Counted from the stretch's first letter, positions 8,075 through 64,000 are shown. The stretch is DNA of 64,000 nt from a virus (IMGVR_UViG_3300029136_000219:56475-120474), one strand, 5' to 3'. Program-made: numbers and translations. Notes: a model not told the origin generated them from the sequence alone.

Positions 8075-9499
8075 GTGAAATACATGAAATATATAACTGA
8101 AATGTTTTTATATATAAATTATTTTAAGAAAAAATTTAATATAAAAACGCAAACCTTTAATCCGTATTATACTGCAATAGAAGGCGTGAAAAAATATTGT
8201 GAAGACAATGATGTGAATTTAGATAACAGAAACGAAATTGAGGATTACATTATTTCTCTGAATGTTCCGAACATTAAAATCAATATATTCAATCTTTTGT
8301 ATCCAAATGTTAAGCACAATGTTACTGACGAAAGAGTTCAAAAATGTGATTTATCTATGTTGTCGGATTCAATTTTATTGAAATATCTTTTTATAATTTT
8401 TTCTACAATAAATTTTGTTTATAAAGATAATCTAATAGGTCTTAAATACAATGCTGTTATATGGACGACAGGATTTCATAATCTTGCAAAACTCTGCAGA
8501 GGAAAAGTAATAGATATTGAAACAATGACAATAGTTTCATATCCCTTTGATAAATTCTTTAATGTAAACGAAGTGTCGGAAACAAAAGAGGATATTATTA
8601 AAAAACTCGTGAGTGAAAGCACTTATGTATATACAACCGACAAAAAAGATGGTTCTACTATTATAGTTTCACTTTATAAGAACAAACCTCTCATCACTAC
8701 AAATGGCTCTTTTGAAAATGACCAGATTGTATTGGCAGAACAACTTCTAAAAAAGAAATATCCAAAATTTTTAAAGGAAATAAAGGAAGGATATACTTAT
8801 ATCTTTGAACTTATACATCCTGAAAACAGAATAGTAATAAATTACGGTAATGAAAAATCACTTTATTTACTTGCCGTAAGAGACTTAAGAACAGAAAAAC
8901 TTCTTTCACTTGATGAAACTCATATCATTGCAAATGATTTTGACTTTCCTGTTCCTCAAACATTTTCTTTTAAAAATCTTTCTGATATTCTTTATCTTGC
9001 TCATACAGAAAGAAATACTAACCGTGAAGGATGGGTACTTCGTATAGGACAAAAAGATGGTGGAGAATTTATGCTCAAAATAAAATTAGATGAATACTTT
9101 GAACTTCACTCGGCTTTTAGTAAAATTACCCTTACATTTGTATATCGGCATTTACTTGCGAATGACCTTGATGATATTATCAGCATTGTCTCCGAAAATC
9201 AACAAAAAGAAATAAAGGAATATATTAAAGAAATTGAAAATATCAGAGAAAAAATAAAAGAAAATTCTGAAAATTTAACCGAAAATATTTGCAAAAAATT
9301 TGCAACTTCTTTGATAGTTGCAAGAACCGACAGAGAACTTACTGTCAAAATTATAAGTGAAATTATAAAAGAAGAAAGTTTGTACGGAAGTTTTGCTATT
9401 GAATATTTGAAATACGGAGATAGTGTTGAGGATAAAATACGGAAAATCCCTACGAAAATATTCAAGAAATTTGTTGAGGTTTTGAACGAAAAGGTTTGA
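8075..9499 (+). CDS. ATP-dependent RNA ligase-like nucleotidyltransferase (Rnl family)
   Basis: Motif I KxDG (TDKKDGSTI). EGWVLR (motif IV) and FMLKIK (motif V), typical of covalent nucleotidyltransferases and RNA ligases. Confidence 0.6.
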   Translation: MKYMKYITEMFLYINYFKKKFNIKTQTFNPYYTAIEGVKKYCEDNDVNLDNRNEIEDYIISLNVPNIKINIFNLLYPNVKHNVTDERVQKCDLSMLSDSILLKYLFIIFSTINFVYKDNLIGLKYNAVIWTTGFHNLAKLCRGKVIDIETMTIVSYPFDKFFNVNEVSETKEDIIKKLVSESTYVYTTDKKDGSTIIVSLYKNKPLITTNGSFENDQIVLAEQLLKKKYPKFLKEIKEGYTYIFELIHPENRIVINYGNEKSLYLLAVRDLRTEKLLSLDETHIIANDFDFPVPQTFSFKNLSDILYLAHTERNTNREGWVLRIGQKDGGEFMLKIKLDEYFELHSAFSKITLTFVYRHLLANDLDDIISIVSENQQKEIKEYIKEIENIREKIKENSENLTENICKKFATSLIVARTDRELTVKIISEIIKEESLYGSFAIEYLKYGDSVEDKIRKIPTKIFKKFVEVLNEKV

Positions 9500-40157: not shown

Positions 40158-40180
40158 TCTTGCGCGATAAATATATAGAA
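40158..40180 (+). promoter_or_regulatory. short promoter-like motif (TTGCGCGATAAATATATAG)
   Basis: Shares the TTGCGCGAT-(A/T)-TATA core with 53.2-53.6 kb. Confidence 0.35.
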
Positions 40181-40667: not shown

Positions 40668-43475
40668 ATGATTTATATTGAAAAAATATTGTCAATTGTA
40701 CTTGCAATGGCAGTTATGCTTAGCACTGTTGTTATAAGCGGAACTGCATTTGCGGAAGAAAGTACAGAAAAAATCTACACTATGGTGTCAGGTAGACTAA
40801 ATATTAAAACCGGAGTCGAAACAATACCTTCAAATTTTTTGGATAAAGACGATGTTAATAATGTTATAAGTATTACAATGCCTGATACTGTTACCGATAT
40901 TGGTTCAAGAGCCTTTAAAAACTGTGCTAATTTGTCTTATGTTAAATTATCAAAAAACATTACACAAATTAATGACAGTACGTTTTATGGATGCTCACGA
41001 TTAACAGACATTACAATTCCGGCAAAAGTAGAATGTATTGATAAATATGCATTTTATGGTTGCACCAATTTATCAAATATGAATTTTGAATCAAATACAA
41101 CACTAACACAAATTTTATCATACGCATTTTATAATTGTATCTCTTTATCTAACTTTAGTATACCTGATTCGGTTACAACATTGGGAACATATGCTTTTTA
41201 TAATTGTTCTTCACTTACTAATATAACGATTCCTGACAGTGTAAGCGTAGTGCCGGAAAAATGTTTTTATGGTTGTATTAATGCAACTGATTTAAAATTG
41301 TCAAAAACATTAACAGAAATAGGCAATAATGCATTTGAAAATTGTAAAACAATTAAAAGTATAAATATGCCTAATACTGTTGAAAAAGTAGGCGTGGCCG
41401 CATTTAACGGATGTAAGAATGTTAGAAATATTCATATTTCAACGAATCTTGGAAGTTTATCTAAGTCAGTATTTAAAAGTTGTTCAAGTCTAACTTCGTT
41501 AACAATTCCAAATAATATTTACGTAATTAACAGCAATGCATTTACTGATTGCAAATCACTCTTAAATATTATCGTTCCGGAAAATGTTTATATACTTGAC
41601 AATGAAGCTTTTAAAGGATGTACAAATCTTAAAACTTGCCAGTTGCCAACAAAACTCACTTCGATACCGTCAGGATTATTTAGTGGTTGTACTTCACTTG
41701 AAGCTATAACAATTCCTAAAACTGTTAAGTCAATTTCGGCATCGGCATTTTATAATTGTCAATCACTCAAAAATATTGATATTCCTGATACTGTTAAAAC
41801 AATCGGTTCAAGTGCATTTTCAGGTTGCAAGAATATTGAAACATTAAAATTATCAAATAATTGTGAGACAATAGGTGCAAATGCTTTTTACAATTGTTCC
41901 AAAATTCAAAATGTTGAATTGCCTGAGACTGTTAATACAATCGGCGAAAGTGCATTTGCTTATTGCTCTTCACTTTCTGATGTTACTGTAAAATCAAACC
42001 TCGATGCAATAGGTAATAACGCATTTAGCAAAATTAATCGAAATTGTGTATTTCATTGTTATTCAAATGGATATTCGTTTAATTATTTCAAATCTCTTGG
42101 CTATAACGTTGAATGTATAAATCATGACAAAGGCTCATATCAAGTTATAAAGGCAACTCCAAATACAAATGGCTCTTATGGTATTAGATGTAATGCTTGT
42201 GGTGCTATTCTTGAAGATAATAAAGTGATTTTAAGACCTTCATCAATTCATCTATCAACCAATTCTACACCGTATACAGGTAATGAGATAAAACCTGATG
42301 TAACTGTATATGATGCAAAAGGTAATGCTATTAGTAAATCTAATTATGAAGTTGTTTACAATAATAATGTTCATCCCGGTAATGCAACAGTAACAGTTAA
42401 TTTCAAGGGAAAATATTATGAGGGTTCAATGACCTCTGAATTTACAATTAGAACAACTGCAAATATTAATAATCCAATTTATGATTGGGATAATGCTACA
42501 GTAGTTGATTTTTCAAAATCAAAAACATACAAATATACAATTACAAATGATAATTCACTTTCTTATTTTAAAATTAATTCAGCAGATGCAGGATATTATG
42601 AAGTAAGAATATCGGGATATTATCCGGCAACTCCAGATTACAGTTGCTCTATGTTTATTAATAATACTCCTTTTGCAAACAATGCATCATATATTACAAA
42701 CAACGGAATTATAAATGTAAATTCAGCTAATTCAAACGGTGTACTTAAAAGTATTATGCGGTTAGAGCAGGGAAACAACTATGGTGTAATTAATGTTCAA
42801 TATGCTGCTAATAAAAATGCAGGGAAAACTATAACAGTTTCATTTACAAAACATACTTCACATTCAACAGTTGAAAATATAATACCGGCAAGTACAAGCA
42901 CTAACGGTGCAATAGTTAAAAAGTGTAAGGTATGTGGTGAAACAATATCAACTACCGTAATACCCCGAATAAGAAATGTTTCTTTAACTAAAACGAAATT
43001 TGTATATGACGGTAATTCAAGAACACCGTATGTAACTGTTTATAATACAAACGGTAATAAAATTTCATCAGGTTACTATGATGTTACATATAAAAATAAT
43101 AAAAATGTGGGTAAAGGTACAGTGATTATCACTTTAAAAGGTAATTATTCCGGTACTATTACAAAAACATTTAAAATTGTACCAGCAAGCATCAATATTT
43201 CAAGACTTTCGGTCAAAGGAAAGACAGTTACCGTTAAATGGAAAAAGCAGAAAAAACAAGTCACAGGCTATCAAATTAGGTATTCAACTAAATCTAATAT
43301 GAAGTCTTCAAAAACAATTACAATATCTAAAAAATCTACGTCTTCTAAAAAAATTTCTAAACTAAAAAAGAAAAAGAAATACTATATCCAAATAAGAACA
43401 TACAAAAAGATTGGTAAAACTAAGTATTATTCTAATTGGTCTAAAAAAGGTGTAGCTAAAATCGGCAAAAAATAA
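40668..43475 (+). CDS. BspA-like leucine-rich-repeat surface protein with Ig/FN3 modules
   Basis: Signal peptide. At least 15 repeats of IPxxVxxIGxxAFxxCxxLxxI. C-terminal K-rich FN3 module (GYQIRYSTKSN...YYIQIRTYKK) like the 52152 protein. Confidence 0.75.
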   Translation: MIYIEKILSIVLAMAVMLSTVVISGTAFAEESTEKIYTMVSGRLNIKTGVETIPSNFLDKDDVNNVISITMPDTVTDIGSRAFKNCANLSYVKLSKNITQINDSTFYGCSRLTDITIPAKVECIDKYAFYGCTNLSNMNFESNTTLTQILSYAFYNCISLSNFSIPDSVTTLGTYAFYNCSSLTNITIPDSVSVVPEKCFYGCINATDLKLSKTLTEIGNNAFENCKTIKSINMPNTVEKVGVAAFNGCKNVRNIHISTNLGSLSKSVFKSCSSLTSLTIPNNIYVINSNAFTDCKSLLNIIVPENVYILDNEAFKGCTNLKTCQLPTKLTSIPSGLFSGCTSLEAITIPKTVKSISASAFYNCQSLKNIDIPDTVKTIGSSAFSGCKNIETLKLSNNCETIGANAFYNCSKIQNVELPETVNTIGESAFAYCSSLSDVTVKSNLDAIGNNAFSKINRNCVFHCYSNGYSFNYFKSLGYNVECINHDKGSYQVIKATPNTNGSYGIRCNACGAILEDNKVILRPSSIHLSTNSTPYTGNEIKPDVTVYDAKGNAISKSNYEVVYNNNVHPGNATVTVNFKGKYYEGSMTSEFTIRTTANINNPIYDWDNATVVDFSKSKTYKYTITNDNSLSYFKINSADAGYYEVRISGYYPATPDYSCSMFINNTPFANNASYITNNGIINVNSANSNGVLKSIMRLEQGNNYGVINVQYAANKNAGKTITVSFTKHTSHSTVENIIPASTSTNGAIVKKCKVCGETISTTVIPRIRNVSLTKTKFVYDGNSRTPYVTVYNTNGNKISSGYYDVTYKNNKNVGKGTVIITLKGNYSGTITKTFKIVPASINISRLSVKGKTVTVKWKKQKKQVTGYQIRYSTKSNMKSSKTITISKKSTSSKKISKLKKKKKYYIQIRTYKKIGKTKYYSNWSKKGVAKIGKK

Positions 43476-45324: not shown

Positions 45325-45641
45325 CTGAACTCGAAAAAAATAATTTAGATATTGCAGTAGATAATATTATCTGTTTGTGCGACAAAGAAAGATGGAATTA
45401 TTTCTTTTTTGGTTACACGTTTTTTGTGTTTACACCATTCTCCGGTTGGAAGTTTGACCTTGATGCAAACAAAATTGAGCTTTACCATAAAAATTCTCGT
45501 ATTGAGCCAAATGCTGAAAAGCATAAACAAGAATATCATAACCAAAATAAATCTTTTTCCATTAATGATTTGTTCAGCTATATCAAAAATCATGATAATG
45601 TCTATTTACATAAGAAAAAAAGAGGTTTTGGCGCAATATGA
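45321..45641 (+). CDS. hypothetical protein
   Basis: TTG after GAGGTGA. Confidence 0.5.
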   Translation: MTELEKNNLDIAVDNIICLCDKERWNYFFFGYTFFVFTPFSGWKFDLDANKIELYHKNSRIEPNAEKHKQEYHNQNKSFSINDLFSYIKNHDNVYLHKKKRGFGAI

Positions 45642-46429
45642 AAAGCAAAAAGTTTAAAATTGCAATAGTGATACTCATTATATCTATATTAATAGGTATA
45701 GTAAGTGGAAGTTATTTGGTATACAAACATAATCTGTTAAATGATTACAACACAACAATTTCTCAAATTAAGGATAAAACTACTGACGAAGATAAAAAGT
45801 CTATTTCAAAGAAAAAGCTGAATTTTAAATCTTTAAAGAAAATTAATTCAGATGTAAAAGGATGGCTTTCAATTCCTAATACATATATTGATACACCGGT
45901 TACACAAACTAAAAACAATACATTTTATCTTAAACATAATTTTTATAAAAATTATAGTTTTTACGGAAATGCATTTCTTGACTACCAATGTAATGATAAA
46001 TCTCATTTGAAAATCATTTACGGTCATAATATGAGAGATAATGCACAATTTGGAACTTTGCATGATTTATACAAAAATCCTAATAAAGCAAAAAGCAATT
46101 CCATGATTACTTATGAAACTTCATCCGGAAAATCAGAATGGATTGTTGTTGGTGCTTATTATACAAACGGCACTGAGTTTGCACAAACCAGTGAACAATT
46201 ACGTAATGCTCTTGATAGCAATAGTGTTAATTCTATTGAAAACAAAACGAAACAACTTGATAAGCTTAAAAATAAATTTATTTATACTTCAGATGTTATA
46301 TTTGATGAATATGACAACTATATGGAGCTATACACTTGCTCTTATCAGGTTAAAGGTCAGCGCTTTGTCGTTGTTGCAAGAGAAAAACGTGAAAATGAAC
46401 TTATAACAAACATTGATTACAAAAAATAA
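45638..46429 (+). CDS. sortase (class B-like)
   Basis: N-terminal TM helix. GWLSIPNTYIDTPV, YGHN, LYTCSY (TLxTC-like catalytic Cys), RFVVVA. Confidence 0.7.
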   Translation: MKSKKFKIAIVILIISILIGIVSGSYLVYKHNLLNDYNTTISQIKDKTTDEDKKSISKKKLNFKSLKKINSDVKGWLSIPNTYIDTPVTQTKNNTFYLKHNFYKNYSFYGNAFLDYQCNDKSHLKIIYGHNMRDNAQFGTLHDLYKNPNKAKSNSMITYETSSGKSEWIVVGAYYTNGTEFAQTSEQLRNALDSNSVNSIENKTKQLDKLKNKFIYTSDVIFDEYDNYMELYTCSYQVKGQRFVVVAREKRENELITNIDYKK

Positions 46430-49680: not shown

Positions 49681-49735
49681 TTAAGTACAAATACAGCATC
49701 CCCGGATACGCTGATTAAACATTATCCGGGAATGT

Positions 49736-49823
49736 GACAATGTAGTTTAACGGTAAAACACAAAAGTTGTTTTTTTGATCCTCCTTCGACTTTTGGATGT
49801 AAGTTCAAATCTTACCATTGCCA
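49736..49823 (+). tRNA. atypical tRNA-like gene (class-II-like long variable arm, anticodon loop GTTGTTT, no encoded CCA)
   Basis: Acceptor stem GACAATG/CATTGCC with one mismatch. D-stem GTTT/AAAC. Anticodon stem CAAAA/TTTTG. Variable arm ATCC...GGAT. T-arm GTAAG-TTCAAAT-CTTAC. Anticodon identity ambiguous. Confidence 0.4.
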
Positions 49824-49832
49824 ATAAGATAT

Positions 49833-49915
49833 GCTGATGTGATGGAATGGCAGACAGAAGAGACTTAAAATCTCTTGGTGGAAACATCGTGTGAGTTCGA
49901 CTCTCACCATCAGCA
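49833..49915 (+). tRNA. tRNA-Leu(TAA)
   Basis: Acceptor GCTGATG/CATCAGC. Anticodon stem-loop AGAGA-CTTAAAA-TCTCT. Long variable arm. T-arm GTGAG-TTCGACT-CTCAC. CCA encoded. Confidence 0.75.
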
Positions 49916-50266
49916 CCACTGCAGGGCCCAAGTGAAAGGTCTAAGAAGTTTCACAACGGTATAAGATATTTCTTGGCTGGTTTTTGCCGTGTGCTGGAAT
50001 GCACTGAATCAATAACCTTACAGACAGTATCAAAAAAGTTAGGACTTTTTGTATTGGAAGGGTTGCTGACCTTTCCGTAGTTTTTCTAATGATTTAAAGG
50101 AAGTTAAGCAAAAGTGTACATATTACTTTACTGAATTTAATCACCGTATTAACACGCTGATAGACAGTATTTCTCCCACAATTCGGGAAGTAAAGAGATC
50201 TATTGGTTGAAAGTAAATGGATACGGCAGAACAGTGCACATCTGCCGTATCACGATTATTAAATAC

Positions 50267-50338
50267 GCAGATATGATGTAATCGGTAGCATACAACTCTT
50301 CCACAGTTGGTGTGCGAGTTCAAACCTCGTTATCTGCT
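50267..50338 (+). tRNA. tRNA-Gly(TCC)
   Basis: Acceptor GCAGATA/TATCTGC. Anticodon stem-loop CAACT-CTTCCAC-AGTTG. T-arm GCGAG-TTCAAAC-CTCGT. CCA encoded. Confidence 0.75.
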
Positions 50339-50347
50339 CCAAAATAT

Positions 50348-50420
50348 TCTCCATTAGTTCAGAAGGTAGAACGGTAGACTGTTAATCTATATGTCATTGG
50401 TTCAAATCCAATATGGAGAG
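50348..50420 (+). tRNA. tRNA-Asn(GTT)
   Basis: Acceptor TCTCCAT/ATGGAGA. Anticodon loop CTGTTAA. T-arm ATTGG-TTCAAAT-CCAAT. CCA encoded. Confidence 0.75.
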
Positions 50421-50426
50421 CCAAAC

Positions 50427-50499
50427 GGACCGTTAGCTTAGTAGGTAAAGCAACCGGCTCATAACCGGTAAACCATGGGTTCAAATCCTATACGGTCCA
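50427..50499 (+). tRNA. tRNA-Met(CAT), elongator-type (or Ile-lysidine)
   Basis: Acceptor GGACCGT/ACGGTCC with base-paired 1:72. Anticodon stem-loop ACCGG-CTCATAA-CCGGT. CCA encoded. Confidence 0.75.
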
Positions 50500-50505
50500 C
50501 CATAT

Positions 50506-50578
50506 GTGTCATTAGCTCAGTAGGTAGAGCAACAGACTTTTAATTTGCAGGTCAAGGGTTCAATTCCCTTATGACACA
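50506..50578 (+). tRNA. tRNA-Lys(TTT)
   Basis: Acceptor GTGTCAT/ATGACAC. D-arm GCTCAGTAGGTAGAGC. Anticodon loop CTTTTAA. T-arm AAGGG-TTCAATT-CCCTT. CCA encoded. Confidence 0.75.
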
Positions 50579-50587
50579 CCACTTAAT

Positions 50588-52151: not shown

Positions 52152-53102
52152 ATGAGTTTAGCTAAGAAAGTATTATCGGTTGGTATTGCTTCTATTATGG
52201 CAATGTCAGCTATTGGAGTTGGCACTACTGCACTTGCCGAACCAATTAATTCTGTTCAGTCGGCTACTTCAATTTCACTAAATGAGAGTAAAACTGTGAC
52301 CTTGAAATATGGTGATATTGGTAATTATGATGACATCTCGGAAGATACTGTTTACTATAAGTTTACTGCTCCGACCACTAATTATTATGAATTTACCTTA
52401 ACAGGTTACAAGACAAGAATTGATAATAATGACCCAAGTGCTTATATTGATATAACAGATGAATATGGCGTCAATGCATCGTCAAGTGGGGGCTTATTTA
52501 ATCCGTATTTTAATGATGTAAAATCAATTGCCTATTTGGAACAAGGAAAGTCATATATAATCAATGTCTTTTACTCACCAATTGGTACTCAAGAGTACAA
52601 TTCAAAGGACTATGCCGAAACAGCAATTACACTAACTGTTTCTCCACATACACATGACATTACAAGTGTCGTTAATGACGGATATACAGACTACACCTGC
52701 AAGCGTTGCAATTATTCATATACCGAATTTAAACCGTTACCGACATCTCCTTCACAGCCTACACAGGCTCCTACAAGCACTGTTACTCCAATAACAGCAA
52801 GTAAGGTATCAAAGCCAAAAAAGACTAAAATTAAAAAGGTAAAGGCTGCTAAGAAGGCATTGGCAGTTACTTGGAATAAAGTATCCGGCGTAAAAGGTTA
52901 TCAAGTACAGGCTGCAACAGACAAAAAGTTCAAAAAGAACAAGAAAACTGTTACAATCAAGAAGCAAAAAACTACTAAGACAACCGTAAAGAAACTTAAA
53001 GCTAAGAAAAAGTATTACGTAAGAGTAAGAACTTACAAGACCATAAATGGAAAAAAGGTTTACTCGGCTTGGTCAAGTGTAAAAAATGTAAAAACTAAAT
53101 AG
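52152..53102 (+). CDS. secreted protein with C-terminal K-rich FN3 module
   Basis: Signal peptide. C-terminus KGYQVQAATDKKF...YYVRVRTYKTINGKKVYSAWS parallels the LRR protein tail. Confidence 0.65.
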   Translation: MSLAKKVLSVGIASIMAMSAIGVGTTALAEPINSVQSATSISLNESKTVTLKYGDIGNYDDISEDTVYYKFTAPTTNYYEFTLTGYKTRIDNNDPSAYIDITDEYGVNASSSGGLFNPYFNDVKSIAYLEQGKSYIINVFYSPIGTQEYNSKDYAETAITLTVSPHTHDITSVVNDGYTDYTCKRCNYSYTEFKPLPTSPSQPTQAPTSTVTPITASKVSKPKKTKIKKVKAAKKALAVTWNKVSGVKGYQVQAATDKKFKKNKKTVTIKKQKTTKTTVKKLKAKKKYYVRVRTYKTINGKKVYSAWSSVKNVKTK

Positions 53103-53117
53103 ACTTTTTTGTAAATC

Positions 53118-53160
53118 TAAAAAGCACCATAGAATTTTGATTTTCTATGGTGCTTTTTTA
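53118..53160 (+). terminator. rho-independent terminator
   Basis: AAGCACCATAGAAttttgattTTCTATGGTGCTT, then a T run. Confidence 0.7.
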
Positions 53161-53175
53161 TTTTTCTAAAAATAA

Positions 53176-53600
53176 AAAACTTGCGCGATATATATATTGA
53201 ACGAAGCAGTTAGGAGGAATGTTATGACACTTACAGGAAACATAATTTTGCTGATTGTATGTTCAATTACATTTATTGCAAGTTTGACGGCTCTCATTTT
53301 GAGAAGTGTCAAAAAACACAAAAAATGAAAAAATTTAATATTCAAAAATTTTAAAAAGTTGCGCGATATATAAAGTGAAAGGTGAATAACACTCATTTGA
53401 TATTAGAAATTTGGAGCTTGATTATAACCTTTCTGAAAATAAAAAAATTGCGCGATATAGAAAATGGTGAGGTTAAACCGCACTGGCGTAAATATCGTAT
53501 TGAAAATTATAAAAAATCAAATAGAACCTGCTTTGAGTGTATATTTTGAGGATTTGTATTTGATTTTATGAAAAAAAATTTTCTTGCGCGATATCTTAAG
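53176..53600 (+). repeat. four short promoter-like repeats (A/T-run + TTGCGCGATAT + A/T) within 430 bp
   Basis: Copies at about 53176, 53357, 53443 and 53578. Core shared with the long cassette (TTGCGATTTATATAG). Confidence 0.5.
53224..53328 (+). CDS. tiny membrane peptide (34 aa)
   Basis: AGGAGGAA RBS. MTLTGNIILLIVCSITFIASLTALILRSVKKHKK. Paralog of 49579. Confidence 0.4.
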   Translation: MTLTGNIILLIVCSITFIASLTALILRSVKKHKK

Positions 53601-53843: not shown

Positions 53844-54011
53844 ATGAAAACTATTTTCGAGGAATACGGTACAGTAATCATCGTTGCAATTGCTATCGTT
53901 GCTCTTATTGCTATCGTAACATTTATCCTTGGCGATGACCAGATTAAGGGCAAGTTCAAGGATCTTGTAACAAGCTTCTTCAATCAGGTTAAGTTTGACG
54001 CAGCAGCTTAA
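53844..54011 (+). CDS. Flp-family pilin-like peptide (leaderless)
   Basis: MKTIFEEYGTVIIVAIAIVALIAIVTFILG resembles the Flp mature N-terminus (AIEYGLIAxxIAV...LG). AAAGGAG RBS. Confidence 0.55.
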   Translation: MKTIFEEYGTVIIVAIAIVALIAIVTFILGDDQIKGKFKDLVTSFFNQVKFDAAA

Positions 54012-54049
54012 TTAAATTGATTTGAAAAGGTTTTAAGTCTTGAACAGAC

Positions 54050-54097
54050 ACGTGCCACACCTTGTTTCTTGATGGACGAGGTGTGGCTTTTTCTTTG
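54050..54097 (+). terminator. hairpin (terminator/attenuator)
   Basis: GCCACACCttgtttcttgatggacgaGGTGTGGC, then a T run. Confidence 0.5.
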
Positions 54098-54123
54098 AAA
54101 ATGATTTTTGTGGGTGAATTTAT

Positions 54124-55419
54124 ATGGGAATTTTTAGTAAGAAAAATAATGATTTAGAGAATATAGAAAATACAGAAATCGTTACTCTGATAGAAGAAAA
54201 GAAAGAGAAAACGGAATCTCAGATTATAAATGAGATGCAAAAGGATTATTTATCTAAAAGAGAAAATCTTGGCGATTGGGATTTAGAGCCTAAAGATTTC
54301 GGACCGGTATGGAGTTATGTTGCAGATGAAAATGTCACAGATATTAACTTGAATATGGACGGTCACGATTTGTGGATTACTGATTTAAACAAGGGTAAAT
54401 ATCGAGTTGAACCGGAAACATTTAAACAAAAATGTGATGAATGGTTAGAAACACAGGATGCACTTGAATTTGGAAATACAGAGCAGCAGGATTCAAACAG
54501 TTTATTTGTAAAGCAATTCGTACACAGAGTTGGTAATAAGCAAAGTAGGCAATTTAATAAACAAAAACCGTTACTTGAAGCAGAAACAGGAAATCTTCGT
54601 ATATCGTGCGTTCATTCATCTGCGGCAGTATCCGGTATATCAATATGCATAAGAAAAACACCACCTGTAATGAGAATTACACCTAAAAAAGCATTAGAGC
54701 AAAAATATTTTACAGAAGATATTTTGTGTTTGCTAACCAATTGCGTTAAGGCAAAAATGAATTTTGTCTTTTGTGGTGAACCGGGTGTAGGTAAAACAGA
54801 ATGTGCAAAATTCTTTTCCCAATTTATTAATGCTGAGGATAGAGTTATTACAATCGAAGATAACCCTGAATTACACTACAGAGAAATTAATCCCGGCAAG
54901 GATTGTGTTGAATTGAAAGTATTTGAGCCTATGTTTACATACAGTACAGCTATTAAGGCTTGCCTTCGTCAAAACCCTCAATGGATTATGCTTTCTGAGG
55001 CACGTTCAACAGAAGTTAAATATCTTCTTGAATGTTGGTCAACCGGTGTATCAGGTTTTACTACACTTCATACTGATGATGTAAGAAAAATCCCAGACCG
55101 TATTCAAAACATGATGGGAGATAGCAGAGATGCCGAAAGACTTGAAAATGATATTTTTTCTTTCGTAAATATTGGAATACTACTTCGTAAAAAGAAGGAT
55201 GAAAACGGCAATACATATCGTTATATTGATCAAGTTTGCTTTTTTGATAGAAGTAATGGTAAAAACAATATTGTGATGATGGTTGAAAACGGACAGATGA
55301 TTAACAACAATGGAGAAAAACCAAAAATTCCTGACTATATTTTAAAGCGGTTAAGCTTTGTAGATATAACTGATCCTTATTCGGGATTAAACGAAATTTT
55401 GAAGGGAGAAAAAGATTAA
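54124..55419 (+). CDS. CpaF/TadA/VirB11-family secretion ATPase
   Basis: Walker A GEPGVGKT. Asp box RVITIEDNPEL. RQNPQWIMLSEARSTE (His-box region). Confidence 0.7.
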   Translation: MGIFSKKNNDLENIENTEIVTLIEEKKEKTESQIINEMQKDYLSKRENLGDWDLEPKDFGPVWSYVADENVTDINLNMDGHDLWITDLNKGKYRVEPETFKQKCDEWLETQDALEFGNTEQQDSNSLFVKQFVHRVGNKQSRQFNKQKPLLEAETGNLRISCVHSSAAVSGISICIRKTPPVMRITPKKALEQKYFTEDILCLLTNCVKAKMNFVFCGEPGVGKTECAKFFSQFINAEDRVITIEDNPELHYREINPGKDCVELKVFEPMFTYSTAIKACLRQNPQWIMLSEARSTEVKYLLECWSTGVSGFTTLHTDDVRKIPDRIQNMMGDSRDAERLENDIFSFVNIGILLRKKKDENGNTYRYIDQVCFFDRSNGKNNIVMMVENGQMINNNGEKPKIPDYILKRLSFVDITDPYSGLNEILKGEKD

Positions 55420-57275
55420 TGGATAAACGTGAAAAAATCGAAAAGAAAAAGGAACGTCTTGAAACTAAAATCAAAGATTGTGATGACCAAATTGCGGAAA
55501 TCGAAAAAGCAAAAGCTTTAAAAGCAAAAATTGAAAAGATGAAACAAGAGGAACGTCTTGAAAAAGCCGAACAGAAAAAATTAAAGCAATTGCAAAGAGA
55601 ATATGCAAGAGAGCAGGATAAAATCCGTAAGAAGAACGAACAGATTGCTCAAAAGAATAAAGTTGTTGAAAAACGTGAAGCTGAAAAAGAAACAAAGGTT
55701 AAAAAAGATTTCAACAAAAGAGAAAAGTATCTTAAATACGGCGTTGATCCTAATATAAAAACATTACCAAAAAAGAAAAAAGTAAATGTTTTTAAAATGC
55801 TTGATTACAATCAATTGCAGATGGAAGTAAATAAATACGGATATCATTATTCGTTTAAGAAAATTCTTATGCATTACCTTATTGCAGTTATTCTTGCTGT
55901 TGCAGTCGGTATGGTATTTAAACTCAAATTCTATCTTATCGGAGTCATTGTCCTTGCCGCAATTATCTTTACACCGTCAATAATTCTTACTTCTGTAAAA
56001 GGAATGTATGAAGGTAAACGATTTTATGACGTAGCAAATTATATTGAAACTCTCTTATATTCTTTCAGACGTAAGGAAAAAATCCTTGATGCACTTGAAG
56101 ATACATATACGTCATATGAAAAAGACAAAGGTAAAATGGGTGACTGTATTGCAAAGGCAATAAATCATATTAAATTTTCCAACTCTGTCGGTGATGTTTC
56201 AAAAGAAGCTTTATCAATCATTGAGGATGAATATGAACATAATGAAAGAATGGTTAATGTTCACAACTTCCTTATTGCTGTTGAAAATAACGGTGGTGAT
56301 GTTCGTAGACCGGTTGATTTACTTCTTAAAGAAAGAAATATGTGGGATGAAAGAAACCATTCGTTCCAGAAAGAAAAGACAACTGTAAGAAGAAATATTG
56401 CTATTTCAATTATATGCTCAGTTGGACTTTGTGTATTCCTTCTTTATATCCTTGGAACAGGACAAATGGCTGAACTTGATATTATTCACAATAATCTTGT
56501 TCAAATTACATCAACCGTTGCAATTATTGCAAGTATGGGTATGTATGTAATGGCTATAAACAAATTATCTCAGAGCTGGTTGGCTAAAAATACTAAATAC
56601 AGTGATTATCAGGTATTAAGAAACTACTTTAATGCAAAAGATTTTGACTTTGTTTCTGAAATGAAATCAAGCTTATTGTTTTCTATAATTGGTATATTAC
56701 TGATTGTCCTTGGTATTTCAAGAGGAATTAAAATTACGATTATTCTTGGTGCTGCACTGACAATTTTCTTTATTTGTGCACCTCTTATTGCTCATTCAAC
56801 AGCAAAGAAAGTAACAAACAAAGAAATTACAAAAGCGTTCCCTGAATGGCTTATGAACGTTGCACTTCTTATGCAACAAGATAATGTTCAGGTGGCTATT
56901 GCTAAGAGTGTTAATACTGCACCTGCAGTATTAAGACCTGATCTTACAAAACTTGTTAAAGATTTCTACAAAGAGCCTAACAGTATTAAGCCATACCAAA
57001 ACTTTTTATCGGATTTTGACTTTCCTGAAATTCAGGGTGCTATGTGTATGCTTTATTCAATAACCGAAACAGGTGACGATGCCGGTGGAGAGCAAATTAA
57101 CGACCTTATTGATAAACAAAATATTCTTATGGATAAGGCAGAAAGAACGGCAAATGAAGATACCATAGCAAGCTATTCGGCATATCAAATGATGCCTATG
57201 CTTATATGTATATTCAAAGCTCTCCTTGATATGACAGTCCTTGTAATGGGATTGATGTCATATATGAATAATTAA
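55419..57275 (+). CDS. GspF/TadB-TadC-like inner-membrane platform protein (fused, with N-terminal K/E coiled-coil)
   Basis: Start overlaps the upstream stop (TAATGG). Two blocks of 3-4 TM helices separated by a cytoplasmic domain. 618 aa. Confidence 0.5.
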   Translation: MDKREKIEKKKERLETKIKDCDDQIAEIEKAKALKAKIEKMKQEERLEKAEQKKLKQLQREYAREQDKIRKKNEQIAQKNKVVEKREAEKETKVKKDFNKREKYLKYGVDPNIKTLPKKKKVNVFKMLDYNQLQMEVNKYGYHYSFKKILMHYLIAVILAVAVGMVFKLKFYLIGVIVLAAIIFTPSIILTSVKGMYEGKRFYDVANYIETLLYSFRRKEKILDALEDTYTSYEKDKGKMGDCIAKAINHIKFSNSVGDVSKEALSIIEDEYEHNERMVNVHNFLIAVENNGGDVRRPVDLLLKERNMWDERNHSFQKEKTTVRRNIAISIICSVGLCVFLLYILGTGQMAELDIIHNNLVQITSTVAIIASMGMYVMAINKLSQSWLAKNTKYSDYQVLRNYFNAKDFDFVSEMKSSLLFSIIGILLIVLGISRGIKITIILGAALTIFFICAPLIAHSTAKKVTNKEITKAFPEWLMNVALLMQQDNVQVAIAKSVNTAPAVLRPDLTKLVKDFYKEPNSIKPYQNFLSDFDFPEIQGAMCMLYSITETGDDAGGEQINDLIDKQNILMDKAERTANEDTIASYSAYQMMPMLICIFKALLDMTVLVMGLMSYMNN

Positions 57276-57291
57276 TGTGAGGTAAACAACT

Positions 57292-57609
57292 ATGAGTAGT
57301 GTTATCAAATCTTATACTTCAATCATTTTTATCATTATTGCTTTTGTTGTGTCAATTGGTGTTATTTCAATGAGTGTTGATATTCAAAACGCAAGAAATT
57401 TTTATAGCACTGCTGTTACCGAAATCGAAAACAGTGATGCTAACGACAAAGTTATTGAAGCGTTACAAAATGATGCCAAGAAAAATAAGTACAAACTCAC
57501 AGTCACTAAAACAACCGGCGGTACAGCTAAAGTTGTTCTTGAATACAAATATTCCTTCAGATTTTTAAATATATCAAATAATCAAAAAATTGAAGGATAT
57601 GCCCGATAA
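57292..57609 (+). CDS. TadE-like pilus-assembly protein (N-terminal TM helix)
   Basis: AGGTAAACAAC RBS. SIIFIIIAFVVSIGVISM anchor. Confidence 0.4.
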   Translation: MSSVIKSYTSIIFIIIAFVVSIGVISMSVDIQNARNFYSTAVTEIENSDANDKVIEALQNDAKKNKYKLTVTKTTGGTAKVVLEYKYSFRFLNISNNQKIEGYAR

Positions 57610-57621
57610 GGAGGTAAAGCA

Positions 57622-57720
57622 ATGCGTTTAATTATTGAAGAATATGGACTTGCTGTTGTTTTTACTATCTTTATCGGGGGATTAATCGGCTTGCTTTTTA
57701 AATTAGTGACTCAATTGTAG
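57622..57720 (+). CDS. Flp-family pilin-like peptide (32 aa)
   Basis: AAGGAGG RBS. MRLIIEEYGLAVVFTIFIGGLIGLLFKL. Confidence 0.5.
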   Translation: MRLIIEEYGLAVVFTIFIGGLIGLLFKLVTQL

Positions 57721-57732
57721 GGGGGATTGTTT

Positions 57733-57876
57733 TTGAAAGATATATTTGAAGAATACGGAGATTTCATATTACAGATTATCGGAGGTTTTGCCGTATTGGG
57801 AATTGTATTCTCACTTTTTTCAAAAAACGGTTTGCTCAACGAAGCACTTGCCTCAGTCTTTAATTCTGTTACATAA
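57733..57876 (+). CDS. Flp-family pilin-like peptide (47 aa)
   Basis: TTG after AGGGGGG. LKDIFEEYGDFILQIIGGFAVLGIVFSLF. Confidence 0.5.
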   Translation: MKDIFEEYGDFILQIIGGFAVLGIVFSLFSKNGLLNEALASVFNSVT

Positions 57877-57889
57877 GGAGTGATTTGCT

Positions 57890-58093
57890 TTGAAAATAAT
57901 TTTTAGTGAATCTGGTAAAACAATTATTGCTATTTTGGTAGCACTAATAATGATTGGTACATTTGCTATGGGCGGTTTCTTTGCCGACTTGCTATCTGAT
58001 TATGGTAATAAAAATAATAATGTATCATATTCAGATAGTGATAAAGCTTTTGCCGATTATATTCCGGATGAAAGTACAACATCAAATACTTAA
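57890..58093 (+). CDS. Flp-like/pseudopilin-like peptide
   Basis: TTG after AAGGAG. MKIIFSESGKTIIAILVALIMIGTFAMGG. Confidence 0.45.
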   Translation: MKIIFSESGKTIIAILVALIMIGTFAMGGFFADLLSDYGNKNNNVSYSDSDKAFADYIPDESTTSNT

Positions 58094-58109
58094 TAGGGGG
58101 TAACTTAAA

Positions 58110-58757
58110 TTGAAAAACGCAATTATTTCGGTTGGACTTGTTATTATAATGATATTATCCTTATGTGGTATTCTCAGTGTTGTTACAAACATAACAAGGA
58201 CTAATGAATTGGAAGAAAATATTAATACAGCAACATATCAAACTATGGATAAATTCTTTATGGATACAACGGTTGAATCAAATCAAGAAAATGAAAATAG
58301 ATTTGTATCTGAATTTACGGCAAATTTAATGAATTTAATTGATAGCGATTCTGAAATCAATGTAAAAGTCGTTAAAATTGACCTCTCTAACGGCGTATTT
58401 CGTGTAAACGCTACAGAAAAATACAAAGGTATGTTTAAAATAAAAAAGTCAATTAAAGCTGACAGAACAATGATTTTGGACTTTGGTTCAAGTGATGTAT
58501 ATAAAAAGAATAATATTACTGTTACGTTCTATTGGGATAAGGATAAAGTTGTGAAAAAAATAAGAGCAACGGCAGGGGATAGCGTTTCGGCACCAAATGA
58601 ATACATTTATGTAGATAATGCTGATTATCTGATTCCTAATGGCTTTCATGATTTTAAAGGTTGGACCAAAAATAAAGAAACAAATGAACTTGTTGAATTT
58701 GAAGACGGAAAAGAAAGAGTAACCGAAGATACGGTTTACTATGCTGTATTTGAGTAA
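58110..58757 (+). CDS. TadE/TadG-like membrane-anchored protein
   Basis: TTG after AGGGGGG. N-terminal TM helix, then a beta-rich domain. Confidence 0.45.
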   Translation: MKNAIISVGLVIIMILSLCGILSVVTNITRTNELEENINTATYQTMDKFFMDTTVESNQENENRFVSEFTANLMNLIDSDSEINVKVVKIDLSNGVFRVNATEKYKGMFKIKKSIKADRTMILDFGSSDVYKKNNITVTFYWDKDKVVKKIRATAGDSVSAPNEYIYVDNADYLIPNGFHDFKGWTKNKETNELVEFEDGKERVTEDTVYYAVFE

Positions 58758-58761
58758 GAGC

Positions 58762-58792
58762 AAGGAGATGTCAAGATGGCATCTCCTTTTTT
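58762..58792 (+). terminator. rho-independent terminator
   Basis: GGAGATGtcaagatggCATCTCC, then a T run. Confidence 0.7.
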
Positions 58793-61106: not shown

Positions 61107-61206
61107 TTCTTTTTTAATTGTAAAACATATGCGAACTTATTCATATCAACATTGACACTATGTACTCCGTGCGGTATAATTTAAGTATAGAAAGGAACGA
61201 AAAATT

Positions 61207-64000
61207 ATGAAGAAAACGTTGAGTTTTTTACTTGCTTTTGCATTGATATTTTCAACTGTAATTGTACCGGTTTCAGCAATGGCAGATACAACCAATACAA
61301 ATGATTTTGAAAAATATGTTTATAATTCTGATACAGATGAAATTGATTATAATAAAGTTGCTGTATTTGAGGATGGATATGATTTAAAAAACTATATAAA
61401 ATCACTTAATCTTAGATTAAATAATACACCAGAGCTTATTGATGGACTTGTTTGCTATTTGAAATCTCCTTTACAAACTTCTCCTTACGGCAAAGACGGA
61501 AAATTAGAAGAATCGTTTTTATATATGGATGACCATAGTGGATATTCCGGTCCGTATAAAATCAAAGCTCACTGGCTTGGATTAAATACTGAAATGTATA
61601 GAACTTGTCACTTACTTCGTTTGGAAGTTACACATGACTATACAACCGAACAAATTAACGAATATTATAAAACAATTAACAGAGCTTTTGATGAAATGAA
61701 CCTTTATGATAAGTCTGATTATGCAAAGGCTACTTCTATTGTTTCTTGGATTGGTAATAATATTAGTTACAACGGTGATAATTATCAAAATGTTGCAACG
61801 GCTATGCTTATCAACAAAGACGGTATCTGTTCTGGCTTTACAAGTTTAGTAAATTATTTTTGTAACATAGCAGGAATTGAAAGCTATATAATGGGTAGTA
61901 TAGGTCATGAATGGAATGTAATAAAAATTAACGGTAAATATTACTATGCAGACTGTTCTAATACTATTAATGCAAGGCTTATGTCAGCTAAAGTTTATGG
62001 ACGTGTAGATGAAAAAACTTGGGTTGGTGGAGATTCAAATAATTATTATATTGAAATGACAAATTCAGCACCATATGCTACATTACACATTGTAGATGAG
62101 GAAGCATGGAACGATTTTAAAAGTCAAAAGCAGTTTGTTCTTGACTTTATGGATAATCTTACGTTAGTTGGTATTGATACTATAGGCCTTGTTGGAGATG
62201 TTCGTTATCACACACATTCATCTCCATATGCAATTAGTAAAACTCAAATAAAAAAATCAAATACATCTTCAAATAATTTAATTTCTGATGATAATTGTAA
62301 TCTTAAATATGAAAACATTGACGAGAAATTTACTCAAACCAGTAAAAGTAGTGTCAATGGCTATATGACAGGCTATTTTACCAATAGAACAGCATATTAT
62401 ACTGACAATGATGTTATAACAGAAAATGCACGTCCTATTAAGGATTGTATCCTTAACGGTAATACCGGTGATAAAGCAGTTAAACTTATCACAACAGAAA
62501 CTCAGGTTGACCAGTTTGATAACCCAACCAATAAGACTGTTAATTTCACGGAAAACCGTGTAATTGAAACCGGTAAAGTTATAAAGAACACCAAAACTTC
62601 TCATAATTATTACAAGAGGACAATCAAAAATTATACTTGTGATAAAGATACCGTAATTGAATTTGTATGTAAGGATTGTGGTGAAAGATTTTGTCTTGTA
62701 AAATATTGTGACAATCATCAGTTTAAAACTTATGTTGACGTTACACCAAATACATGTACTTCTGACGGCAAAATTAACATTTATGACGGAAACGCAACGG
62801 ATTATGATTTTAAGTCGAAGTCTTTTAAAGGTGTTTCATTGAACAAGCTTAATCATAATATTAAGACTGAGGTTGTTGATAATGGCACATTAGAAAGAAC
62901 TTATTGTGATAATACTTCTAATGAAATTACATTAACAACCGATGATATTAAAAATAATCTTATGAATTGCTTGTCTTCCAGTGATTATGACGGTGTAGAC
63001 GATTTAAAGTGGAATAAAACTCAAGACCGTAGATTTTGGGAATTTAATTGTGATAATCAAAACGGTCAAACACCGACTATTACAATGAAACTCCTTGCTA
63101 AAGGTATCAGTGACGGTGTAAGCAATTATGGCACATCTCTTTATTTTACAATTAAAGATGATGAAACAAATGAAGTAAAGACATATAATTTCTGTTATAA
63201 CGACAAAACGAAAGTAGCAACTCTTACCAATGTAAATGATAAGACGGATGTATTACCGGCTGAAGCAAAAATTGAGGGTGTAACCATTACCCTCAGTGTT
63301 AAGGCTAATTCAGTATATAAAGGATATGGTTATAGTTACTCTTATCTTAACGGAAGATTTTACGAAATAAGAACCAATGGTGCATTTTCGGATATGTTTG
63401 GTTCAAACTGCTATATCAAATTTACATACGATAATTGTAATTATGAAACTACTAAAGAGTTAGATCATTTTTATCAGGAAAGTAACAGAACACCTGCTTC
63501 TTGTATCAAAGAGGGTACAGTAGAGTATACTTGTAAGCACTGTGGTGCTAAGAAATATGATACTTTACCATTAGCAGAACATACTGCTATAATTCAAAAT
63601 AAAAAGGATTCTACGTGTGCTGAGGAAGGCTATACAGGTGATACTGTTTGTAGTGTATGTGGTAAAACACTTAAAAAGGGAACACCAGTTCCTAAAAAGG
63701 ACCACACGTATAAAATCACAACCGTAAGTGCTAATTGTACTTCTCAGGGTTATGATGAATACACTTGTATTTATTGCGGCTATTCGTATAAAACAAATTA
63801 TGTAGAACCTAACGGTAAGCACGTTCCTAAATATGGCGTAAACAAAAAGGAAGCAACATGTACCGAAAAGGGCTACACCGGTGATACAGTTTGTACTGTT
63901 TGTAACAAAGTAATTGAAAAGGGTAGTGAAACAAATCCTAAAAATCACAGCTATGTTCTTACAACTGTATCTGCAACGTGTGTATCTGAGGGATATGACC
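61207..64000 (+). CDS. secreted transglutaminase-like cysteine peptidase with C-terminal CxxC repeat modules (3-prime partial)
   Basis: Signal peptide MKKTLSFLLAFALIFSTVIVPVSAMA. DGICSGFTSL...GHEWNVIKINGKYYYADCS is a Cys-His-Asp transglutaminase-like core. At least four repeats of CxxCG(x)n...TGDTVCxVC. The ORF continues beyond the window end. Not in the track because it has no stop. Confidence 0.65.
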   Translation, partial: MKKTLSFLLAFALIFSTVIVPVSAMADTTNTNDFEKYVYNSDTDEIDYNKVAVFEDGYDLKNYIKSLNLRLNNTPELIDGLVCYLKSPLQTSPYGKDGKLEESFLYMDDHSGYSGPYKIKAHWLGLNTEMYRTCHLLRLEVTHDYTTEQINEYYKTINRAFDEMNLYDKSDYAKATSIVSWIGNNISYNGDNYQNVATAMLINKDGICSGFTSLVNYFCNIAGIESYIMGSIGHEWNVIKINGKYYYADCSNTINARLMSAKVYGRVDEKTWVGGDSNNYYIEMTNSAPYATLHIVDEEAWNDFKSQKQFVLDFMDNLTLVGIDTIGLVGDVRYHTHSSPYAISKTQIKKSNTSSNNLISDDNCNLKYENIDEKFTQTSKSSVNGYMTGYFTNRTAYYTDNDVITENARPIKDCILNGNTGDKAVKLITTETQVDQFDNPTNKTVNFTENRVIETGKVIKNTKTSHNYYKRTIKNYTCDKDTVIEFVCKDCGERFCLVKYCDNHQFKTYVDVTPNTCTSDGKINIYDGNATDYDFKSKSFKGVSLNKLNHNIKTEVVDNGTLERTYCDNTSNEITLTTDDIKNNLMNCLSSSDYDGVDDLKWNKTQDRRFWEFNCDNQNGQTPTITMKLLAKGISDGVSNYGTSLYFTIKDDETNEVKTYNFCYNDKTKVATLTNVNDKTDVLPAEAKIEGVTITLSVKANSVYKGYGYSYSYLNGRFYEIRTNGAFSDMFGSNCYIKFTYDNCNYETTKELDHFYQESNRTPASCIKEGTVEYTCKHCGAKKYDTLPLAEHTAIIQNKKDSTCAEEGYTGDTVCSVCGKTLKKGTPVPKKDHTYKITTVSANCTSQGYDEYTCIYCGYSYKTNYVEPNGKHVPKYGVNKKEATCTEKGYTGDTVCTVCNKVIEKGSETNPKNHSYVLTTVSATCVSEGYD

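Follow-up and report, generated by a model that had tools for sequence, protein, structure and literature searches.

The 64,000-nucleotide stretch of DNA analysed here (IMGVR_UViG_3300029136_000219:56475-120474, hereafter the window) is catalogued as viral and encodes, at positions 53844-58757 of the + strand, a compact module with a motor ATPase, a fused membrane platform protein and small membrane-anchored peptides that start without a leader. Its Tad ancestry is clear, and its most likely way of working is that of a type IV filament. With moderate confidence, we interpret it as a minimal, peptidase-independent Tad-derived type IV filament machine, likely serving attachment to cells or surfaces, with a candidate role in mating. 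This interpretation draws on the gene content, the leaderless starts, the homology of the ATPase and platform, the predicted pilin fold of one anchored protein (p105), the conservation of the pilin set among relatives, and the lack of a nearby prepilin peptidase gene. From these we infer the building of a filament with the first peptide (pep1) as its major subunit, its independence of a peptidase, and its adhesive or mating role.

The eight genes (pep1, the ATPase gene, the gene for a 618-amino-acid (aa) protein, p105, pep2, pep3, pep4 and p215) are co-directional, and all those that the original prediction had described for positions 53844-58792 are present on the + strand. The features of the module and its borders, in window coordinates, are as follows (TM, transmembrane).

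53119..53158, + strand: intrinsic terminator, a 16-bp stem and then a T-run, which ends the upstream fn3 surface-protein gene
53844..54011, + strand: pep1, 55 aa, MKTIFEEYG followed by a TM helix and an amphipathic tail; AGGAG Shine-Dalgarno sequence, in-frame stop 2 codons upstream
54054..54087, + strand: intrinsic terminator between pep1 and the ATPase gene, a 14-bp stem with 7 GC pairs and a T-run
54124..55419, + strand: secretion/pilus motor ATPase, 431 aa, with the motifs GEPGVGKT and RVITIEDNPEL
55419..57275, + strand: platform protein, 618 aa, overlapping the ATPase stop by 1 nt
57292..57609, + strand: p105, leaderless and N-terminally anchored, with a predicted type IV pilin fold
57622..57720, + strand: pep2, 32 aa, MRLIIEEYG followed by a TM helix; AAGGAGG Shine-Dalgarno sequence, stop 4 codons upstream
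57733..57876, + strand: pep3, 47 aa, beginning MKDIFEEYGDFILQIIGG; the open reading frame (ORF) opens at 57727, the second TTG at 57733 being the preferred start
57890..58093, + strand: pep4, 67 aa, beginning MKIIFSESGKTIIA (MKIIFSESG); AAGGAG Shine-Dalgarno sequence, stop 3 codons upstream
58110..58757, + strand: p215, 215 aa, N-terminally anchored and extracellular, with a Flg_new-like C-terminus

The pep1 gene is a separate transcription unit with strong intrinsic terminators on both sides. The terminator at 53119-53158 is the left border of this unit, and the presence of another one (54054-54087) downstream of pep1 is a pilin-gene-like arrangement. The start of pep3 is most likely the second TTG, which gives MKDIFEEYG, since this codon suits both the Shine-Dalgarno spacing and the motif. 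Searches of the module DNA against INPHARED phages and PLSDB plasmids gave no match, and PHROGs returned nothing informative for any module protein beyond weak ATPase families.

Motor ATPase and fused platform protein

The original prediction placed the ATPase in the CpaF/TadA/VirB11 family, and Pfam, NCBIfam and structure matches agree with that assignment. The protein matches Pfam T2SSE (E = 3e-18, 66 bits, cut-off 24.9). Its NCBIfam scores are 92 bits for VirB11 (TIGR02788, 91.8 bits against a cut-off of 249.95), 73 for TrbB and 64 for the TadA family, all far under the equivalog cut-offs, and it is about equally distant from the VirB11, TrbB, TadA, FlaI and ComGA models. Matches in the PDB are to afGspE (an archaeal GspE), VirB11, CpaF and FlaI, the first three at about 1e-13 (CpaF structures at E = 3e-13). 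These comparisons place the ATPase in the T2SSE/VirB11/CpaF/FlaI superfamily, apparently equally close to VirB11, FlaI and archaeal GspE. By BLASTP it aligns to the "VirB11-like" ATPase of the pLS20-family plasmid pBatNRS213 (31% identity, E = 5e-41) and to a CpaF/VirB11 protein of Priestia (E = 9e-39), and genes that it finds on plasmids of Bacillus, Listeria and other Firmicutes carry the annotation "ATPase, T2SS/T4P/T4SS family" or "VirB11-like".

The 618-aa protein has no Pfam, NCBIfam or PDB sequence-profile match, and profiles of its family return noise against PDB sequences. When the full model was compared with the PDB by Foldseek, no significant match emerged, as a long N-terminal helix dominates the model. 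The two halves of the protein are homologous to one another (hhalign probability 90%, E = 1.5e-6, 202 columns), and tblastn ties the C-terminal half to a plasmid of Priestia koreensis. The locus on that plasmid encodes, in order, a DUF5411 protein, SAF/RcpC (CpaB), a TadZ-like ParA, the CpaF/VirB11 ATPase, a T2SSF-family protein, a hypothetical protein and a DUF4320 protein. Residues 125-300 of the 618-aa protein match the Priestia T2SSF-family protein (hhalign 96.8%, E = 2.6e-10), and residues 423-589 match the adjoining protein at the TadC position (98.3%, E = 2.3e-14). The internal duplication and the profile matches to this pair therefore identify the protein as a TadB::TadC fusion with two GspF/T2SSF-type repeats, TadB-like at about 125-390 and TadC-like at about 391-618. 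Residues 4-106 are modelled as a single K/E-rich helix, part of a cytoplasmic N-terminal extension (residues 1 to about 110) that varies among relatives. The earlier description of a fused GspF-like platform with a K/E-rich N-terminus is thus borne out by the duplication, the Priestia homology and the helix model. Of the hidden Markov model (HMM) searches proposed with it (T2SSE, T2SSF, Flp_Fap and TadE), T2SSE passes its threshold and the T2SSF, Flp and TadE models fall short. In metagenomes the platform family forms 971 clusters at 50% identity, with a usual length of about 500 aa. The SpoIIIAA-AB proteins of the sporulation feeding-tube complex differ from the module in the single repeat of SpoIIIAB, in the ring-forming AG and AH proteins, and in having no pilin-like subunits.

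Leaderless subunits and absent Tad components

All four peptides begin with M-[KR]-x-I-[FI]-[ES]-E-[YS]-G, followed by a TM helix. The narrower form first proposed for all of them, M-(K/R)-x-I-F-E-E-Y-G, holds for pep1 and, if the start is at 57733, for pep3; pep2 has I at the position of F, and E-E-Y-G with the TM helix is present in three of the four peptides, pep4 having SES instead of EEY. The motif [FLI]EE[YF]G occurs three times in the six frames of the window, always within the module, against 0.07 occurrences expected from shuffles, and does not arise by chance. Each of the peptide ORFs has an in-frame stop 2-4 codons upstream together with a Shine-Dalgarno sequence (AGGAG, AAGGAGG, AAGGAG), and a longer leader is therefore impossible in all four. 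The predicted leaderless state of pep1-4, with no G/XXXXEY cleavage context, is proven from the DNA. Only M-K/R stands ahead of the conserved core, with neither Gly nor Ala at -1. The elements of a Flp-type class III signal peptide (charged leader, Gly/Ala at -1, G/XXXXEY) are lacking in pep1-4 and in the peptides of related loci.

In Flp prepilins, cleavage by TadV exposes E at +5 and Y at +6 (PMC3244431). Counted from Met1, the E-Y of the module peptides lies at +7/+8. Methionine aminopeptidase should retain Met1 when Lys, Arg or Gln follows; given this and the position of E-Y, the module peptides are encoded just two residues longer than processed Flp. Pep1 aligns with Pfam Flp_Fap over profile positions 12-46 only, which is the mature part (E = 0.068, 13.4 bits, cut-off 32.2). 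The resemblance of the peptides to the mature Flp N-terminus noted earlier, E-Y-G followed by a hydrophobic helix, is thus recovered, at a sub-threshold score. Among 13 peptides of the family, three match Flp_Fap, all below threshold, and it is the sole Pfam family matched by more than one peptide. The peptides were also considered as Sec signal peptides, holins or bacteriocins. These readings were rejected in view of the acidic n-region and the helix of more than 20 residues, the conserved paralogous set, some members of which have large extracellular domains, and the constant linkage to the ATPase and platform.

The peptide set is conserved in relatives whose platform proteins are 25-50% identical to that of the window (loci L015, L017, L018 and L024-L026). 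In each locus the sequence M-[KRQ]-x-[IVF]-[FLI]-E-E-[YF]-G and a TM helix head 3-6 paralogues of 35 to 232 aa, all with leaderless starts. The pep1-type form (54-75 aa) is encoded upstream of the ATPase in one to three tandem copies. Orthologues of pep2 (35 aa) and of pep3 (47 aa, MK[AMI]IFEEYG[DS].[IL]LQI[IL]GG) occur as well. At the position of pep4 the relatives encode proteins of 167-232 aa that begin MK.IFEEYGKTII, and pep4 is a shortened version of these FEEYG minor pilins. Two relatives have an extra FEEYG form of about 200 aa. A scan of this protein in L018 detected an LRR_5 domain (E = 8e-13), and for the gene at the same position in L024 an LRR_5 hit is on record. It is a hallmark of type IV filaments (type IV pili, type II secretion systems (T2SS) and Com) that an abundant small subunit is accompanied by minor subunits sharing its N-terminus, some with binding modules. 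Judged by sequence, the FEEYG paralogues appear to follow this classic pattern of one major and several minor pilins, and their conservation is a stronger argument than the Flp_Fap match. Pep1 is the candidate major subunit.

Two further anchored proteins complete the set. The original prediction called such proteins TadE-like, a term that finds no HMM support: p105 received no TadE assignment, matches DUF4320 weakly, and is modelled as a pilin fold by structure prediction. It is better described as a pilin-fold, weakly DUF4320-like protein, and on this model p105 is a putative minor pilin or pseudopilin at the DUF4320 position. A k-mer homologue search yielded five close relatives for pep1 and four for p105, too few for deep alignments. 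P215 matches Flg_new at E = 0.018 in the window and at 3.5e-7 and 5.5e-6 in orthologues, and is conserved as the final gene of the module in relatives. It may be an adhesin associated with the pilus or a factor in its assembly.

In all relatives the module is bordered by genes for large surface proteins (fn3, LRR, transglutaminase-like and Flg_new). Together with the very small size of the subunits, this would suit a short T2SS- or Com-like pseudopilus or piston that acts across the thick wall, exposing or secreting the neighbouring surface proteins or taking up DNA, and whose components would be identical to those of a pilus. We consider such a device quite improbable. The flanking proteins inspected have ordinary N-terminal signal or anchor sequences, ComEA/ComEC-type DNA receptor or channel genes are absent from the module, and the tandem duplication of the major peptide and its own terminator-flanked unit suggest a need for bulk subunit production.

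The 64-kb window contains no candidate ORF for a prepilin peptidase of the Peptidase_A24 family and no GxGD[..]K motif; just two other multi-TM ORFs are present, neither with a Pfam hit on record. Peptidase_A24 is likewise not on record within 10 kb on either side of the related loci that have gene calls, in agreement with the original observation that no such gene is seen. No match to TadZ (the ParA-like localisation ATPase) or to RcpC/CpaB (SAF domain) was found among the module or flanking window proteins, and both are present in the Priestia comparison locus. One could still suppose a canonical Tad system whose peptides are processed by a TadV or PilD from another part of the element or from the host genome. 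The window shows no more than 64 kb of an element that spans 192 kb or more, PilD is usual in clostridial hosts, and pilin and peptidase genes can be unlinked (PMC3244431). A remote peptidase would nevertheless have nothing to cleave, here or in the relatives (stops 2-4 codons upstream, M-K/R only, no Gly/Ala at -1), and TadZ and CpaB are missing as well, which makes this explanation highly improbable.

With no leader on the peptides and no peptidase, TadZ or CpaB in the window, the module is not a canonical Tad system. It shares with Tad/Flp systems (type IVc; Caulobacter Cpa, Aggregatibacter Tad and Gram-positive tad loci; PMC3244431) a CpaF/TadA-type T2SSE ATPase, TadB-like and TadC-like platform repeats (by profile homology to the Priestia Tad-like locus), subunits of about 50-60 aa with E-Y-G at the start of the hydrophobic helix, and extra putative minor subunits with a predicted pilin fold. 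It differs from them in that its subunits have no class III leader and carry E-Y at +7/+8 rather than +5/+6, in the lack of TadV, TadZ and RcpC/CpaB, and in the joining of TadB and TadC in one chain with a variable N-terminal extension; further, the curated Flp, TadE and T2SSF models fall short of threshold for its proteins.

Proposed filament and its counterparts in conjugative plasmids

In the mechanism that we propose, a hexameric T2SSE-type ATPase would dock on the single-chain TadB::TadC platform in the cytoplasmic membrane, and the two would pull small bitopic subunits out of the membrane and stack them into a surface fibre. Pep1 would be the major subunit, with pep2-4 and the pilin-fold protein p105 as minor subunits that prime, cap or tip the fibre, and p215 (in relatives also the LRR-bearing FEEYG pilins) would provide target-binding modules. 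The subunits would be made in a mature-like form, consisting of Met-Lys/Arg, the conserved acidic-aromatic E-E-Y-G and a hydrophobic helix, in which Glu6 or Glu7 may take the role of Glu5 of processed pilins. A peptidase would not be needed because no leader exists. The fibre would serve cell-cell or cell-surface attachment, which may include mating-pair formation for a giant element that encodes VirD4.

Genes of unknown function within the conjugation operons of Gram-positive plasmids are the closest annotated relatives of the module, a link absent from the original prediction. We examined Bacillus atrophaeus pBatNRS213, Listeria pLIS25, Bacillus sp. pl192 and the Priestia koreensis plasmid (loci L003, L022, L023 and L027). 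In these plasmids the "VirB11-like" genes precede TadB/TadC-like proteins and a DUF4320-type protein, and the pXO2-like plasmid has a TrbC/VirB2-family gene after the block. The gene order common to the pLS20-family, pXO2-like and Listeria plasmids is a thioester-domain (TED) adhesin, an anchored protein of about 130 aa, the ATPase, two TM proteins of about 250-280 aa, a DUF4320-type protein of about 115-120 aa and small single-TM peptides that are often duplicated; further genes and then VirD4 lie downstream. Profile alignment by hhalign places pLS20-family g38 (84%) and g39 (89%) collinearly on the N-terminal and C-terminal halves, respectively, of the 618-aa protein, and g38 directly matches the Priestia T2SSF-family protein (E = 7e-7). 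The published description of the pLS20 family names gene 37 a putative VirB11 and leaves genes 36 and 38-47 as "unknown" (PMC8557374). From a canonical Tad system, through the fuller Priestia set with RcpC/CpaB and TadZ, to the minimal module, these loci form a graded series.

The pLS20/pXO2/pAW63/pLM80-like block has an ATPase, two TM proteins, a DUF4320-type protein and small single-TM peptides in the same order as the module. A TED adhesin is associated in both cases, about 86-90 kb away on the element that carries the module and directly upstream of it in the 33%-identical relative L015. The pLS20/pXO2/pLM80-type block differs in having two separate platform genes, which are fused in the window, in being embedded between the adhesin and VirD4, VirB6 and VirB4, and in peptides that begin MLDQN[AT]DR rather than M-K-x-I-F-E-E-Y-G. 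These syntenic peptides rank first in the FEEYG-peptide HMM search, and they are positional analogues only. A BLASTP comparison of p105 with g40 of the pLS20 family gave no alignment, and both match DUF4320 weakly. That conjugation operons of the pLS20, pXO2 and pLM80 types contain the homologous block points towards a role in mating-pair formation. The nearest parallel in function is the thin type IVb pilus of IncI plasmids (R64, TP114), an accessory type IV pilus on a conjugative element, whose minor pilins carry adhesins and which stabilises mating in liquid and in the gut (PMC9045228). This pilus differs from the module in being Gram-negative, with PilS prepilins that have leaders, its own peptidase PilU and a secretin; in sequence the two are not closely related.

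A coupling protein is indeed encoded by the element. The 192-kb contig IMGVR_UViG_3300045988_183299, on which the module is also found, carries an intact VirD4/TraG gene (T4SS-DNA_transf, 9e-48; L028 9950-12097) and a TED adhesin of 1954 aa with 13 SpaA domains (L028 1021-6885). The same evidence could be read in another way, namely that the module supplies the energy and membrane parts of a conjugative type IV secretion system (T4SS) of Gram-positive bacteria, with the ATPase acting as VirB11, the other proteins as channel or scaffold, and no filament. VirB11 is the best NCBIfam model of the ATPase, the plasmid counterpart is annotated as VirB11-like and sits between the adhesin and VirD4, VirB6 and VirB4, and Gram-positive conjugation systems and T4SSs seem not to make pili (PMC8092201, PMC11730352). 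We judge this reading unlikely. VirB11 systems are without a GspF-type platform, and the module has a clear TadB::TadC fusion; the predicted pilin fold of p105 and the several paralogous subunits with a common N-terminus, some of them bearing adhesin domains, also speak against it. Further, the score of the ATPase falls far short of the 250 bits set as the VirB11 equivalog cut-off, the window encodes nothing that resembles VirB4, VirB6 or VirB8, and some 86 kb separate VirD4 from the module.

Several points weigh against the peptidase-independent filament that we favour, and against its role in mating. The filament is a prediction from gene content. The similarity of pep1 to Flp (13.4 bits, cut-off 32.2) is under every curated threshold, NCBIfam pilin models return nothing for the peptides, and the p105 model was built on a four-sequence alignment. 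The peptidase search reached the window and the neighbourhoods of relatives that have gene calls, not the remaining part of the element (192 kb or more) or the host's own chromosome. To our knowledge, all type IV filament systems characterised so far depend on a prepilin peptidase, and we found no precedent in the literature for peptidase-independent assembly. Searches of the open-access literature for leaderless pilins, or for a Tad-like pilus in Gram-positive conjugation, also found nothing, which is no proof of absence, and nothing relevant was found there on DUF4320. As to mating, the FEEYG-peptide HMM gave no significant match to the small ORFs of three Bacillus/Listeria plasmid loci (E 0.1-1.2). 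The module lies about 86 kb downstream of VirD4 and not within a T4SS operon, and the mating role is therefore a conjecture.

A bolder and rather doubtful extension, which we put forward tentatively, is that the module and its pLS20/pXO2/pLM80 homologues are the missing "sex pilus" of Gram-positive conjugation, built from leaderless mini-pilins with no prepilin peptidase and catching recipients through TED, LRR or Flg_new adhesins. If this were true, the prepilin peptidase would no longer be universal in the type IV filament superfamily, and the textbook view that these filaments depend on removal of a class III leader by that enzyme would need revising, as would the view of Gram-positive conjugation as pilus-free (PMC8092201, PMC11730352). 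Since pLS20 is genetically tractable, how Gram-positive donors find recipients in liquid would become directly testable. The module points to an overlooked pilus-like gene set in Gram-positive conjugative plasmids, and the large fused-platform family (971 clusters), carried on giant mobile elements of gut Clostridia, could influence colonisation and gene flow.

Carrier element and neighbouring genes

The window has a GC content of about 30%, with all large ORFs on one strand. Genes identical to those of the window are found on human-gut metagenome scaffolds of 265-795 kb, and the module is also present on IMG/VR "viral" contigs of 115 and 192 kb. The binned hosts are Clostridia (metagenome-assembled genomes of Candidatus Fimenecus and Agathobacter). 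The Gram-positive host and mobile element proposed from the sequence are both supported, the element being a giant one of at least 192 kb. Virion genes are not clearly present in the window, save for a weak scaffold-like match. Its other genes encode a RecG-like helicase, an RNA ligase, a methyltransferase, PcfJ, YopX, a sortase-like protein and LRR/fn3 surface proteins, and relatives at about 50% identity have Rep_3 and/or ParA genes 5-8 kb away. The label "phage", which goes back to the IMG/VR entries, is judged doubtful in view of VirD4 and the TED-SpaA adhesin on the same contig and of Rep_3/ParA beside relatives. We provisionally regard the carrier as a giant plasmid-like, perhaps conjugative element rather than a proven phage.

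In one Logan contig (SRR32130083_1550; L005 3025-5397), the N-terminal ~435 residues of a VirD4-like coupling protein are fused in frame to residue ~69 of the ATPase. Since the 192-kb contig has intact versions of both genes, in the same orientation and separated by about 86 kb, this fusion is either a real deletion variant of about 86 kb or an assembly chimera.

Upstream of pep1 lies a non-coding stretch of 690 nt, in which TTGCGCGATAT occurs in four exact + strand copies (53181-53594; chance expectation 0.45). Every copy has an A-rich tract ahead of it and a TATAAAGTGAAAG-like sequence behind it. A fifth, with a single mismatch (40160-40170), precedes the operon of a 935-aa LRR_5/fn3 surface protein. 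Among the fetched loci, TTGCGCGATAT is found only in copies of this element, including a site upstream of the VirD4-leading block (L005 15-24), and it may serve surface genes as a promoter or regulator site specific to the element. Rfam detected no riboswitch in the 690-nt leader, only sub-threshold noise. Right after the first TTGCGCGATAT copy, positions 53225-53328 encode a 34-aa single-TM peptide (MTLTGNIILLIVCSITFIASLTALILRSVKKHKK) with a strong AGGAGG Shine-Dalgarno sequence and no FEEYG.

Elsewhere in the window, an array of six tRNA genes (49735-50581; Thr-TGT, Leu-TAA, Gly-TCC, Asn-GTT, Met-CAT and Lys-TTT) shares the strand of all other genes, and a T4 Rnl1-like RNA ligase (8075-9499) and a nucleotidyltransferase (6288-7283) are encoded. 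Surface-related genes include those for the 935-aa LRR_5 and fn3 protein (40668-43475) and a weakly sortase-like protein (45638-46429). A 316-aa fn3 protein with a Lys-rich tail (52152-53102) is encoded upstream of the module, and a transglutaminase-core and fn3 protein of about 1250 aa (61200-64000) downstream of it. By its predicted gene content, the whole region looks devoted to remodelling of the host cell surface.

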